A stretch of DNA of 63,655 nucleotides, filler included, from Reclinomonas americana ATCC 50394 (taxonomy: Eukaryota): assembly GCA_048213135.1 (NCBI GenBank). It is 4 parts of 3 records of this genome, joined end to end, with 100 filler letters (N's around TTAATTAATTAA, not from the genome) between each part and the next. Parts side by side here need not be neighbours in the genome. Positions count along the whole stretch, not along the records: positions 1 to 17,917 come from PS015593.1; 3 more parts are not named here. One strand, 5' to 3'. Shown here piece after piece: positions 4,324-9,635 of the stretch (position 1 is the first letter of the stretch; every line of letters starts with the position of its first letter). The notes beneath the pieces were generated by a model, which did no database searches, was not told where the DNA came from, and worked only from the letters and a program-made list of their open reading frames with translations. The translations under genes and the position numbers were made by a program.

Positions 4324-5083
4324 TCAAAACAAAATGTCTTCATCCACCTCTTCCTCTGCCGCTCCCCCTTGCTGCTGCCCCTGATTCCCTTGCTGCTCCT
4401 GCTGCTCACCACCGTCATTCCCTTCTTCCCCGCCCTCCTCCTCTTCCTCCTCCTCCTCTTCTTGCTGATTACCCTGCCAGTTATTCGCCGCCTCCATCCC
4501 CGCTATCCTCGCGCGGAACCTCCGCAACCACCCCTCCGCGCGATCCGTGTCCGGGTGATCCTCGCCGAGCTCCTGCCGCGCGCGCTCCACCCACGGTCGC
4601 AGCACGCGCTCACCCTCGTACACCTCGTTCTGCTGCATCAGGTAGTGCATGTAGTTGAAGAGCGTCGTCTGCGACTCGCCGTGCCAATCGCCCAGCGCCT
4701 CGCGCCGCAATTGCAGGCACTGGCGGTACAGCTCGCCGGCCTCGGCCAGCGACTCCAACGTGTTTTGCAGCGTGAGCGAGTACGCCGTGTTGTTCATGGA
4801 GAAGAGCGTCTCTGGGTGTCGATCGCCCAGCACGCGCCGACGCATGGCAAAGCACTCGCGATCCAGGCGCACACGCTCCGCCGATCGCCCATGGTCCTGA
4901 ATGCACAGCGCCACCTCGTTGAGCGACACCAGCGTGTCGGCGTGCTCCTCGCCCAGCAGCTGCCGGCGCATCTCCAGGCACTGCCGGTGCAGCTGCTCGC
5001 CGTCACGGAAGTGGCGGCCGCGCACGTCGAGCTTCGCACGCCAGAACATTGTCCATATGACGTCGGGGTGGCTGGCGCCGAGC
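4324..5083 (-). CDS. C-terminal TPR repeats (kinesin-light-chain-like, TPR_10/12 type) with acidic tail; probable 3' part of the STAND NTPase gene
   Basis: Repeated LGxxHPDT/ETLxSxNxxA motifs (LGASHPDV, LGEEHADTLVSLNEVA, LGDRHPETLFSMNNTA, LGDWHGES, LGEDHPDT). Open into a gap at the 5' side. Confidence 0.85.
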
Positions 5084-5774
5084 NNNNNNNNNNNNNNNNN
5101 NNNNNNNNNNNNNNNNNNNNNNNNNNNNNNNNNNNNNNNNNNNNNNNNNNNNNNNNNNNNNNNNNNNNNNNNNNNNNNNNNNNNNNNNNNNNNNNNNNNN
5201 NNNNNNNNNNNNNNNNNNNNNNNNNNNNNNNNNNNNNNNNNNNNNNNNNNNNNNNNNNNNNNNNNNNNNNNNNNNNNNNNNNNNNNNNNNNNNNNNNNNN
5301 NNNNNNNNNNNNNNNNNNNNNNNNNNNNNNNNNNNNNNNNNNNNNNNNNNNNNNNNNNNNNNNNNNNNNNNNNNNNNNNNNNNNNNNNNNNNNNNNNNNN
5401 NNNNNNNNNNNNNNNNNNNNNNNNNNNNNNNNNNNNNNNNNNNNNNNNNNNNNNNNNNNNNNNNNNNNNNNNNNNNNNNNNNNNNNNNNNNNNNNNNNNN
5501 NNNNNNNNNNNNNNNNNNNNNNNNNNNNNNNNNNNNNNNNNNNNNNNNNNNNNNNNNNNNNNNNNNNNNNNNNNNNNNNNNNNNNNNNNNNNNNNNNNNN
5601 NNNNNNNNNNNNNNNNNNNNNNNNNNNNNNNNNNNNNNNNNNNNNNNNNNNNNNNNNNNNNNNNNNNNNNNNNNNNNNNNNNNNNNNNNNNNNNNNNNNN
5701 NNNNNNNNNNNNNNNNNNNNNNNNNNNNNNNNNNNNNNNNNNNNNNNNNNNNNNNNNNNNNNNNNNNNNNNNNN

Positions 5775-6190
5775 TTGCTGCAGAGTGCCGCACTCGAGTA
5801 CCTGGCGCGCCTGATTGCCACGGTGCGCGTGCCGGCGCGCGGATTCGACCTGGACCTCGTGCCGCAGCTGGTGGAGCGAGTGGAGGCGTTTGGCGAGCAA
5901 TTCAATGCTGGTGGTGGTGGCGACGGCGATGGCGATCTGGTGGTCGGCATGCGAATGTTCCTCGTGATTCCGCTGCGCAGTCGCGGCTGGCTGCACCAGC
6001 TCATCGGCAACTACAGCACGCGCGACGAGTGCTGGGAGCAGGCGTGGGAGTACTCGGTGCTGTACGACAGCATGAACGACGAGGCGTCGCTGGTGGAGAC
6101 CATGGAGTCGCTGCGGTGCTGGATGCGGCACTCGTACTTTTCCGACGATCGCCAACTGCTGGAGCAGGTGCAGGAGCGGCAGCAGGCGGT
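5775..6190 (+). CDS. Helical/TPR-like coding fragment on an isolated contig, probably inverted in the scaffold
   Basis: Open frame with strong GC3 codon bias (LQSAALEYLARL...RGWLHQLIGNYSTRDECWEQAWEY...) between two gaps. Both flanks are minus-strand coding sequence. Confidence 0.6.
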
Positions 6191-6715
6191 NNNNNNNNNN
6201 NNNNNNNNNNNNNNNNNNNNNNNNNNNNNNNNNNNNNNNNNNNNNNNNNNNNNNNNNNNNNNNNNNNNNNNNNNNNNNNNNNNNNNNNNNNNNNNNNNNN
6301 NNNNNNNNNNNNNNNNNNNNNNNNNNNNNNNNNNNNNNNNNNNNNNNNNNNNNNNNNNNNNNNNNNNNNNNNNNNNNNNNNNNNNNNNNNNNNNNNNNNN
6401 NNNNNNNNNNNNNNNNNNNNNNNNNNNNNNNNNNNNNNNNNNNNNNNNNNNNNNNNNNNNNNNNNNNNNNNNNNNNNNNNNNNNNNNNNNNNNNNNNNNN
6501 NNNNNNNNNNNNNNNNNNNNNNNNNNNNNNNNNNNNNNNNNNNNNNNNNNNNNNNNNNNNNNNNNNNNNNNNNNNNNNNNNNNNNNNNNNNNNNNNNNNN
6601 NNNNNNNNNNNNNNNNNNNNNNNNNNNNNNNNNNNNNNNNNNNNNNNNNNNNNNNNNNNNNNNNNNNNNNNNNNNNNNNNNNNNNNNNNNNNNNNNNNNN
6701 NNNNNNNNNNNNNNN

Positions 6716-9635
6716 GCCCGTGCTTCGCCGACCCGCCGCCGCCCAAAGCGTATCGTCCTCGCTCAGTCGACGCCACGCCGTGTGCAGCAGGCTGAGGACG
6801 TCGCGCTGCACGAGCAGAATCGTGTCCGTGTCGTTCTCCGTGTCAATGGTCAACAGCACGCTGCAGATGAGGCGTATGATGAGGCGCTGCGTGCGCGCCA
6901 CGGCGCGCTGCCCGCCCTCGGCCGTCTCCGACAACCACCGCGAGATCTCGTCGTGCACGCGATACTCGACGCCGGCATCGGCCGCCCGCACAAAGCGGTC
7001 TTCGCACAACACGCGCGCAATGCTGTCGGTGCTGGCCGAGGCGGCCACCGTCGCCAGATTGGCCTCGCACAACGCACGCAGCGCACCGTCCACCTCCTCG
7101 TCGACAATGGTCACCAGCACCGCCACGCGCTCGCGCACCTGCTGCTCCCGCGCCTCGGTCATCTCCCCACATTGCAGCTGCTCGCCCACCAAATCCGGCG
7201 CCCGCTGTCGCCGTCCGCGCGCCAGATGATGCAGGTGTACGCAGCGCGACAGCTCGCCAAGCTCCAGCAGACGCTCCGCCGCCTCCTCGTCCTCCCGCTG
7301 CTCGGCTGCTGCCTCCTCCTGAGGAGCAGCAAAGTCGGGCACGGCGCGGAGGACGCCAGTGGCCACCCGCACCAGTGCCGGGGTGACGCTGACACCCAGC
7401 TCCTTGCAGGCGGTGATGAGGACGAGGGCGCGACGTGCGGCCGAGCTCTGCGACATGACGTTGCGGGAGAGGAGTTGGGAGAGGGCGGCGTCGCCAATGC
7501 CGGAGAGGTTTTCCTCGAGGCGGGCGCCGGTGAGTTCCGCGGGGGGGCAGGACAGGAGCCAACTGTAAGGGGAAGGGATGTAAGGGAAAGGGATGGAAGG
7601 GGAAGGGATGGAGGGGGAAAGGGATGGAAGGGAAGGGTGATAAAGGGAAGGGGTAGAAGGGAAAGGGATGGAAGGGAAGGGTGATAAAGGGAAGGGCGAG
7701 GGAAAGGGATAGAAGTGACAGGGATTGAAGGGAAAGGGATTGAAGGGATAGGGATTGAAGGGAAAGGGAAACAAGGAAAAGGGTGAGGGGGAGGGGCGAG
7801 GGAAAAGTGAGCGGAAAGGGTGAGGGGGAGAAAATAGGCATGAGGGAACAAGAGAAGGGATTCGGGAAAGTAAAGGGGAAATATACAGGGAATGATCGGT
7901 GGACAGAAGGAGATGAAGAGAAAGAAGAAAGGGGAAGGAGTGAGAGGAGAAGGGGGAGGAATATAGGAGAGAGGGGAGAAGAGAGGAAGGAATTAGAAGA
8001 AGGAATAGGGAGGTAAGAGAAGAGTGAGGGTGATACTTGCAACTCCCTTGTGTCTGATCACTCGAGCACAGTCGCATGCAACGACTTGCGAATCTCTAGG
8101 CGCGCGCGCGCGCTCTCTCTCTCAATCACTCTCTCACACTTCACAGAAACTCTTCTTCCTAAAGCTCGCCTTAAGCAACAACTCGGAACTCTATATCATT
8201 CAATCCCTCCAGGGAAGGGAAAGAAACAAAGCGAGAGAGAACAGAAAGGAAACTGCGAAGGGAAACTGCGAAGGGAAGGGGTAACGGAAGCAAAAAGGTG
8301 GAGGATGAGATGGCGGGGGGGACTAAAGAAGAGAGAAAGAGAGACTGAGGATAGGGAGAGAAACCAAATGAATAATTCGGGGAGCGACAGGTCTCTTTCT
8401 GTCTCTTTTGCTATATGGTTCTGCTTGCCACCACACAGTCGATCATTCTTCTTCATCTTCTTCCTTCTCTGACTCTATCACTCTCTTCTACACCGTTCTT
8501 CATTCCACAATCTCTCACTTCCATCTCATAGCTGTAATTCTTCGAGGAACAGGGGGACGTAAAAGCGGAGGGGATGAGAAAGAAAAATGTGAACAGGTGA
8601 AAGAGTCAGAGATCTCGTGTCCACGACTGCGGTTTTTCAGCTCTTCCTCTCCTTCCTTTCCTGCACAACTTCTTCTCATCAACTCTCGCTCGTGCTCTCG
8701 TTCTTTCTCTTGCTTTGCGGCACAAGAGAGACTATCATGAGGAGAAGAGAGCAGGAACACTTCAGAAGCGAAACAGCAACGATGGCAGAGACTGCATCAG
8801 CAAACGCCCTCCCCCCCTCTCCTTCCCCTAAAGAAAACGTACCCCAAGCAAGCGCTCACTCGCAGCGCACTGTGATGCTCTCGCTCCAGCGCCTCAACAA
8901 TGCGCCGGCGCACGGCATCTGACGCGCGGTCGCGCAGTCGCTCCTCCACCACTTGCACGATGTCGTTCTCCACCACGTACTGCAGATGCACGCTCTCCAC
9001 CGCGGTGCCGGCGTGTCCGACCAGGCCGCGCAGCTCGTCTGCCAGCGCATCGTGTCGGCTCGTCACAATGACCACGGGGGAGACGAGGCCGCTGCCGTCG
9101 TCGTCTGTGTGCGTGTGTGGGAGAGGGAATGAGAGACTAGAAAACGCAAGAGCGTCTCTTTGGCGCAAAAAAACGCACCACAAATCGCCCGCTGCACCTG
9201 CTCCAACGACCCGGCATTGTCGAGCACCAGCACACCGCGCGACGCCTCCATCAGCTGGCGCAGTCGGTGACGTGCCGACACCGCGTCGTCGCCACCGACC
9301 ATCGAGTCGACCGCACTCGCCATGCGGCGCCCTTCCTCGGCATCCACTCGCATTTGTGCCGTCACGAATGTGCGCAGGCATACTTCGAGGGCGTGCAGTG
9401 GCTGCGCGAGAGGTGTGCGTCGTTAGCCTCCCTCGAACACGAAAAAAGGAGACGAGGAGGAGGAGTCTCACCTGCACGTGCTCACGCACGTCACTCACGT
9501 GACCGCGCATCTCCACGGACATGGCCGAGCCGTTCCATCGTCGTGTTTTGAGCATTTCGGTGACGATGAGTTCGGCGAGGAAGGATTTGCCGCTGCCGCC
9601 GGGGCCGGTGAGGACCACGATGATGGGTTGGTGGG
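6716..9635 (-). CDS. STAND-class P-loop NTPase (NB-ARC/NACHT-like), multi-exon, partial
   Basis: Exon 9635-9472 has Walker A VVLTGPGGSGKSFLA. The next exon has Walker B GVLVLDNAGSLEQV, and the next has sensor-1 VVIVTSRH. A long helical exon follows at ~7547-6716. Further small upstream exons (~9900-10020) are uncertain. Confidence 0.75.

Follow-up and report, generated by a model that had tools for sequence, protein, structure and literature searches.

STAND NTPases joined to arrays of repeats lie at the core of intracellular immunity and of the control of cell death in plants, animals, fungi and bacteria. One version of this design, an NB-ARC domain followed by TPRs, is described as widespread in bacteria and fungi (PMC4986451). 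Two further instances come from other branches of the eukaryotes: the brown alga Ectocarpus has 24 NB-ARC-TPR genes, in 13 of which each TPR unit of 42 amino acids (aa) is an exon of its own (PMC3341825), and Acanthamoeba castellanii has one NB-ARC-TPR homologue (PMC4053784); these proteins have been proposed as candidate immune receptors (PMC3341825, PMC4053784). The subject of this report is a locus of the same general kind in the protist Reclinomonas americana ATCC 50394 (assembly GCA_048213135.1). It occupies positions 9635 to 4324, on the minus strand, of a 63,655-nucleotide stretch of DNA (referred to below as the window, or the 63.7-kb window) in which four parts of three records of that assembly are joined end to end. 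The locus would encode a divergent STAND NTPase of NB-ARC-like type, then a helical region peculiar to its lineage, then a C-terminal array of TPR_10/TPR_12 repeats; in its complete form, as one minus-strand gene broken by three assembly gaps and with one small contig misoriented within it, this account of the locus is probable, with some room left for others. Fungi, bacteria, brown algae and amoebae already provide examples of the architecture; the sequence is a new and divergent member.

How closely does the locus resemble these systems? The bacterial and fungal comparators are metagenomic TIR_2-NB-ARC-DUF7779-TPR_10/12 proteins, the NB-ARC-TPR proteins of actinobacterial FxSxx-COOH systems, and a fungal patatin-AAA_16-DUF7779-TPR protein. 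The order of parts is the same as in these (P-loop NTPase, helical region, TPR_10/TPR_12 array), and so are the hhhhDN form of Walker B and the hhhTSR motif that follows it by about 25 residues. The locus differs from them in having spliceosomal introns, in having no match to DUF7779 (similarity is not detectable beyond the TSR region), and in the distance of its core, whose resemblance to theirs is apparent only at the level of profiles (6.7-7.4 bits in hmmsearch). With the Ectocarpus and Acanthamoeba proteins, which were compared by description only, it shares an NB-ARC-type NTPase with C-terminal TPRs in a eukaryote outside plants, animals and fungi; it is unlike the Ectocarpus genes in that at least five TPR units lie within one 756-bp exon and that the window holds no paralogue cluster.

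An original prediction, made from the DNA alone, had placed a Walker A motif, a Walker B motif, a sensor motif, a helical region and a series of same-strand TPR repeats at this locus. All of them were found where it had put them, on the minus strand, when motifs were located in stop-to-stop frames and in a three-frame view of that strand (Table 1). GT-AG splicing of exons A to D generates a stop-free frame of 498 aa, and no junctions other than those of the three GT-AG introns preserve the frame; in the numbering of the spliced protein VLVLDNA is aa 111-117 and VVIVTSR aa 139-145. The limits that the prediction gave prove correct to the base: they are the first base after a tttttag splice acceptor (9635) and the last base of a TGA stop codon (4324). 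Because introns are present the gene is eukaryotic, and the claim that it is an intron-containing gene of a eukaryote stands; a bacterial contaminant or a recent transfer was considered and rejected on the same grounds.

The repeats are the most readily classified part. The TPR coding frame (5082-4327, minus strand, 756 bp, 252 aa) lies downstream of the NTPase exons and contains five LGxxHxxT units (LGASHPDV, LGEEHADT, LGDRHPET, LGDWHGESQT and LGEDHPDT), with the 42-aa unit length of the TPR_10/TPR_12 type. Both of these Pfam families exceed their cut-offs on this last exon, TPR_10 with E 5.4e-16 and 58.5 bits (cut-off 27.5) in four stretches, TPR_12 with E 4.1e-13 and 49.8 bits (cut-off 30.1) in three, which confirms the kinesin-light-chain type that had been assigned to the repeats. 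The NCBIfam model FxSxx_TPR matches with E 2.5e-17; TPR_NPHP3 matches weakly (E 5.5e-6, 26.4 bits, far under its Pfam cut-off of 100). No LRR family of Pfam matches any part of the gene; its repeats are TPRs, so that it falls outside the strict definition of an NLR (NACHT or NB-ARC plus LRR). Longer proteins that match the TPR exon number 380 at E<=1e-5, from 6324 candidates. The best 120 of them are 27-41% identical to it and bear many different heads, mostly Pkinase, others CHAT or TIR, with AAA_16, nSTAND1 or NPHP3_N in a few and NB-ARC in three of the 120 listed. NB-ARC (with or without DUF7779) joined to TPR_10/12 does recur among these best matches, in agreement with the earlier remark that the combination is common in bacteria and fungi. 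Because the matches carry so many different heads, the array does not disclose the identity of its own: as judged from its sequence, it is a generic array of the kinesin-light-chain/NPHP3 type, and alone it is uninformative about the head. Elsewhere in the window, a weak TPR-like tblastn match to this exon at 35483-35704 (minus strand; E 0.02, 26% identity over 78 aa) is probably due to chance.

The spliced NTPase query (216 aa) was compared, by hhalign and by hmmsearch, with home-made profiles of 30-121 sequences each, which are not curated Pfam models: a TIR-NB-ARC-TPR profile built from 121 TIR-NB-ARC-DUF7779-TPR regions, an FxSxx profile from 77 of 79 actinobacterial FxSxx NB-ARC-TPR loci, and NB-ARC, NACHT, AAA_16, AAA and AAA_33 profiles, each from 30 loci of the Pfam family concerned, found across five genomes of actinobacteria. 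In hhalign the NB-ARC profile matches at 95.9% (score 65.3, query 2-146) and NACHT at 94.4% (score 56.4, query 5-152), followed by TIR-NB-ARC-TPR (84.6%, score 45.6, query 99-147) and FxSxx (75.7%, score 42.1, query 98-151). AAA_16 matches at 34% (score 33.9, query 2-70, the P-loop region only), AAA at 9% (score 26.5, query 6-27), and the kinases of AAA_33 at 87% (score 41.8) over no more than 21 columns, those of the P-loop. Shuffled sixty times, the query scores 14.3 +/- 2.2 with the TIR-NB-ARC-TPR profile in hhalign, with a maximum of 19.9, against the real 45.6. In the alignments GPGGSGKS falls on the GxGGvGKT P-loop, VLVLDNA on WLLvlDN or vVlD.a, and VVIVTSR on vliTSR or vlVTsR.

Two further comparisons separate these profiles more sharply. 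When Walker A is deleted (aa 25-216 retained), hhalign still scores 37.8 with NB-ARC and 41.8 with FxSxx, 23.2 with NACHT, and 11.7-13.9 with AAA_16, AAA and AAA_33; forty shuffles of the truncated query against NB-ARC give 12.3 +/- 2.4 (maximum 24.1). In hhalign probability the NB-ARC profiles stay at 60-77%, while NACHT drops to 3.3%. In hmmsearch, composition-matched shuffles equal or exceed the real score once per 1000 for NB-ARC and never for NACHT, FxSxx or TIR-NB-ARC-TPR; the corresponding counts are 197 for AAA_16, 974 for AAA and 524 for AAA_33. The likeness to NACHT-type STAND proteins (animal NLRs, fungal NACHT-TPR/WD40/ANK proteins, bacterial NACHT proteins), which includes the best hmmsearch score (12.7 bits) beside the high hhalign probability, is therefore unlike that to NB-ARC in its dependence on Walker A. 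NACHT proteins, moreover, generally have a Walker B of the DG.DE form; here it is DN. The core has a Walker A of the form GxxxxGK[ST], a Walker B of the form hhhhD with a second polar or acidic residue at the STAND spacing, an Arg after strand 4, and greater profile similarity over its whole length to STAND families than to other P-loop classes. We conclude from these comparisons of sequence that the core is a STAND NTPase, very divergent and apparently closest to NB-ARC. That it would group with NB-ARC/NACHT profiles and not with AAA, AAA_16 or P-loop kinases had been anticipated, and hhalign together with the shuffle tests bears this out.

A low-stringency alignment to the NB-ARC profile extends over 369 columns (95.0%, E 3.5e-8), placing EHHSALRV opposite LPLALR, and in it the start of exon D resembles the pattern of the winged-helix region; further on, VHLHHLARG (7240-7214; spliced aa 324-332) is MHD-like by eye only. 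Searches with exon D found two matches at E<=1e-3 among 1.84 billion representative proteins, both of them tandem-repeat artefacts, none among 8000 candidate longer proteins, no usable match in the ESM Atlas, nothing under E 0.06 among PDB sequences and no relative in JGI metagenomes; phmmer with the whole spliced 498 aa against 122 proteins returned only these same two artefacts. This dearth of relatives may reflect poor sampling of the lineage, not true novelty.

Do the NTPase and the TPRs belong to the same gene? Exon D is still open where a gap cuts it off at its 3' end, and so is the TPR exon at its 5' end; the two share a strand and follow one another in the expected order, and we think it quite likely that they are parts of a single gene. 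That they form one transcript, as the original prediction has it, is plausible. Between them lies the small contig 5775-6190, which is coding, and antisense to the gene as assembled, because its codon-position GC content on the plus strand matches that of the exons of the gene and its minus-strand frames have no such pattern: at codon positions 1/2/3 the values are 0.71/0.39/0.86 for 5775-6188 (plus strand only), 0.75/0.49/0.85 for exon D and 0.73/0.39/0.83 for the TPR exon. Its product is all-helical in an AlphaFold2 model of low confidence made without an alignment (pLDDT 48.8), resembles no family or profile in Pfam, the home-made profiles, PADLOC or NCBIfam, and has no relative in JGI metagenomes; in the ESM Atlas its best score is 0.86, with TPR-bearing clusters at the chance level of 0.82-0.83. 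It is probably a misoriented contig of the same gene and would link the NTPase module to the TPRs. The earlier proposal that this contig is an inverted piece belonging inside the gene is plausible; the contig does code on the opposite strand, but its product is similar to nothing in these searches.

What might such a protein do? The characterised STAND proteins that serve as analogues are Apaf-1, the plant and fungal NLRs, bacterial Avs/NACHT proteins and MalT/AfsR. By analogy with these the protein would be a nucleotide-dependent switch: 1) the monomer in its ADP state would be autoinhibited through contacts among NTPase, winged helix and repeats; 2) a ligand on the TPR array would lead to release and to exchange of ADP for ATP; 3) binding of ATP would lead to oligomerisation, bringing the N-terminal domains together and allowing signalling by proximity. 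The intact Walker A Lys and Ser, Walker B Asp and TSR Arg fit a working nucleotide switch, as far as motifs can indicate. That the protein works as such a switch is inferred, as is any part it may have in sensing non-self.

Several results weigh against reading the locus as one STAND NTPase-TPR gene. No NTPase family of Pfam reaches its cut-off on any exon or on the read-through frame (the Pfam scoring of the NTPase covers single exons and that frame). NB-ARC itself (PF00931, cut-off 23.5) scores 17.0 bits on exon A and 13.7 bits on read-through frame A..C, and the best family on the read-through frame (exons A + C) is AAA_16, with 21.4 bits against a cut-off of 32.6. Exon A matches a mixture of P-loop families, AAA_16 included, all below threshold; its best STAND match is nSTAND3 (PF20720; E 3.2e-4, 20.9 bits, cut-off 27.2), a family with a single match across the five comparator actinobacterial genomes, and NPHP3_N reaches E 0.0095 and 16.6 bits (cut-off 24.8). 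Exons B and C match nothing relevant in Pfam, and PADLOC and NCBIfam return P-loop noise only on single exons, apart from FxSxx_TPR on the TPR exon. Scores on the home-made profiles in hmmsearch are low in absolute terms (NB-ARC 2.1 bits, NACHT 12.7, FxSxx 7.4, TIR-NB-ARC-TPR 6.7), and the two programs differ as to the top profile, hhalign choosing NB-ARC and hmmsearch NACHT. When single-sequence queries were used for calibration, the NB-ARC and NACHT profiles gave 82-88% for one of six members of the classical AAA family, and STAND profiles gave 71-93% for two of six from AAA_16. Exon D, compared alone with the profiles, stays at or below 2.5%, without similarity where a winged helix is expected, and its AlphaFold2 model, made without an alignment, is unusable (pLDDT 42.7). 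Gaps separate the NTPase exons, the plus-strand contig and the TPR array, with no physical link from one to the next; the minus strand from 9640 to 13400, outside the gap at 10941-11635, has no frame with coding-type GC content at third codon positions (GC3); and tblastn with all gene parts finds no paralogue in the window.

Part of this evidence speaks for an NTPase of some other P-loop class (AAA+, AAA_16-type or P-loop kinase), with a resemblance to STAND proteins limited to the generic Walker motifs. The exon-wise matches in Pfam, PADLOC and NCBIfam are indeed to assorted P-loop families, at E 1e-4 to 0.1; the AAA_33 kinases do reach a high probability in hhalign; and because an AAA member in the calibration scores comparably on the STAND profiles, hhalign probability alone does not discriminate. 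What does discriminate is how far the match extends, together with the outcome of the shuffles. The AAA_33 match is confined to its 21 columns of P-loop and its hmmsearch score is equalled by about half of the shuffles, nearly all shuffles equal the score for AAA and about a fifth that for AAA_16, and without Walker A matches persist only for NB-ARC-type profiles (for NACHT weakly). A classical AAA+ protein or P-loop kinase is rejected on these counts, and the whole class of such readings is very improbable. The gaps raise a different question: why not two or three genes, a STAND-like NTPase ending within 6191-6715, an unrelated plus-strand gene (5775-6190), and a TPR-only gene starting within 5084-5774? 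Neither exon D nor the plus-strand piece, used as a query, reveals a homologue joining the parts, the piece in the middle has its coding frame on the other strand in the assembly, and TPR_10/12 arrays come with many other heads, few of the listed ones being NB-ARC. Three gene ends would, on the other hand, have to be fitted into about 1.6 kb of a region poor in genes, in a window where introns exceed 1 kb and where more than 3 kb of space lies upstream of exon A; exon D runs open into its gap and the TPR exon opens out of its own without the context of a start codon; neither a STAND NTPase lacking repeats nor a headless TPR array would be complete; and small contigs lying misoriented between gaps are a frequent error of scaffolding. 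Separate genes are, in our estimate, unlikely.

A decaying pseudogene or a chimera of the assembly might also be suspected where the start is not found, three gaps intervene, one piece lies on the wrong strand and the middle region has no relatives that could be found. Against this, 498, 138 and 252 codons are free of stops, GC3 is of coding type in all parts (0.83-0.86), GT-AG sites are preserved at all three introns, none of which disturbs the frame, and the catalytic motifs are intact, so that decay or chimerism is decidedly improbable. A more serious contender accepts the same structure and assigns it to a housekeeping or regulatory STAND/TPR scaffold (compare nephrocystin-3, TANC, and regulators of the AfsR/MalT type) instead of a sensor of non-self. 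Many STAND proteins are not immune receptors; the gene is present in a single copy within 63.7 kb, in no cluster of paralogues; no death or effector domain is recognisable by Pfam in its parts or in 12 upstream frames; and there is the weak match to TPR_NPHP3. Like nephrocystin-3 (NPHP3), the protein would have a P-loop NTPase followed by the same subtype of TPR, with both Pfam matches far below their cut-offs. The scaffold has no positive support, however, since the NPHP3 match on the repeats falls within the generic TPR part, and the profiles closest to the core are those of NB-ARC families whose members bear TIR, patatin or similar effector heads. We lean away from a housekeeping scaffold while granting it appreciable weight; a single divergent STAND NTPase-TPR gene, with its contig misoriented, is common to both assignments of function.

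The N-terminus of that gene is missing from the assembled sequence. Exon A starts in mid-codon, with two codon-completing bases after the splice acceptor, and only a few residues precede the first strand of the NTPase; one or more exons further upstream must consequently be missing. Twelve minus-strand open frames in 9897-13606 have no match in Pfam. With no coding-like frame upstream and a plus-strand gene beginning near 13442, the 695-N gap at 10941-11635 is most likely where the missing 5' exon or exons are hidden. The neighbouring gene on the upstream side lies on the other strand and is represented by a 357-aa frame at 13442-14512 (plus strand, GC3 0.84) that runs into a gap at 14516-15481; its matches to beta-propellers are weak (Beta-prop_THOC3, E 3.1e-7, far below cut-off).

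Table 1. Parts of the STAND NTPase-TPR locus, with motifs, introns and assembly gaps, in window coordinates
Position	Strand	Feature	Details
10941..11635		Assembly gap upstream of exon A	695 N
9636..9665	-	3' end of the intron upstream of exon A	Polypyrimidine tract with tttttag acceptor
9472..9635	-	Exon A	Strand 1 and Walker A/P-loop, GPGGSGKS at 9606-9583
9402..9471	-	Intron 1	GTGAGA...CGCAG, 70 nt
9179..9401	-	Exon B	Walker B, VLVLDNA at 9233-9213
9105..9178	-	Intron 2	GTGCGT...CACAG, 74 nt
8843..9104	-	Exon C	VVIVTSR at 9075-9055 (sensor-1/RNBS-B-like Arg); helical, ARC1-like part
8880-8857	-	EHHSALRV in exon C	At the position of LPLALR in the profile
7563..8842	-	Intron 3	GTACGT...TTACAG, 1280 nt; tandem repeats of low complexity (GGGAAGGG-type as read on the plus strand)
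6716..7562	-	Exon D	All-helical product of 282 aa; candidate region for the winged helix; open into gap
6191..6715		Assembly gap	525 N
5775..6190	+	Small contig	416 bp; open on the plus strand (138 aa, 5775-6188)
5084..5774		Assembly gap	691 N
4324..5083	-	Last exon	TPR array; acidic/Gln-rich tail; TGA stop at 4326-4324

The surroundings of the gene are rich in simple repeats. Strand-biased low-complexity tandem repeats (GGGAAGGG-type and TCTC/TCAC-type) occupy introns and intergenic DNA at 7567-7783, 9643-9684, 10517-10940 and 12373-12533, and their purine/pyrimidine bias reverses near 10590. Upstream of exon A, at 10100-10350, two copies of a unit of about 130 bp can be made out by eye; Tandem Repeats Finder at its default score does not report them. 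About 290 nt downstream of the stop codon there is a 72-nt inverted repeat (3731-3802/3964-4035; 94% complementary, 161 nt between the arms), which could be a foldback element resembling a miniature inverted-repeat transposable element (MITE) or a hairpin of the 3' untranslated region. In other parts of the window, exons for the C-lobe of a Pkinase domain (E 8.4e-9), with ankyrin repeats after them (Ank_2, E 6.8e-17), at 18018-19656 (minus strand) apparently make up one kinase-ankyrin gene. The end of a further unit lies in frame before the ubiquitin unit (E 2.5e-33) at 55468-55746 (plus strand), which is on that account assigned to a polyubiquitin gene next to the gap at 55272-55466. Rfam finds no families in the whole window.

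Whether NLR-like sensing was inherited from an ancestor, arose by convergence or came by horizontal transfer is a question to which the spread of STAND proteins among the remaining eukaryotes is relevant, and the Reclinomonas locus is one further example to be entered in that account: unusually divergent, interrupted by introns, and of a kind that would escape domain scans made exon by exon. Taken alone it changes little, because the architecture is already known in brown algae and Acanthamoeba and because the N-terminal output domain, potentially new, is not in the assembled sequence. One can also entertain a bolder proposal, which we regard as doubtful: that the locus founds a lineage-specific clade of STAND proteins in a little-sampled eukaryote, its NTPase core being too distant from NB-ARC and NACHT for any curated model to recognise it and its 282-aa post-core region and 138-aa linker being without relatives among 1.84 billion representative proteins, and that the missing 5' exon or exons encode an undescribed signalling domain. 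If that were so, the locus would stand for an independent branch of NLR-like immunity, and not for another NB-ARC-TPR protein.

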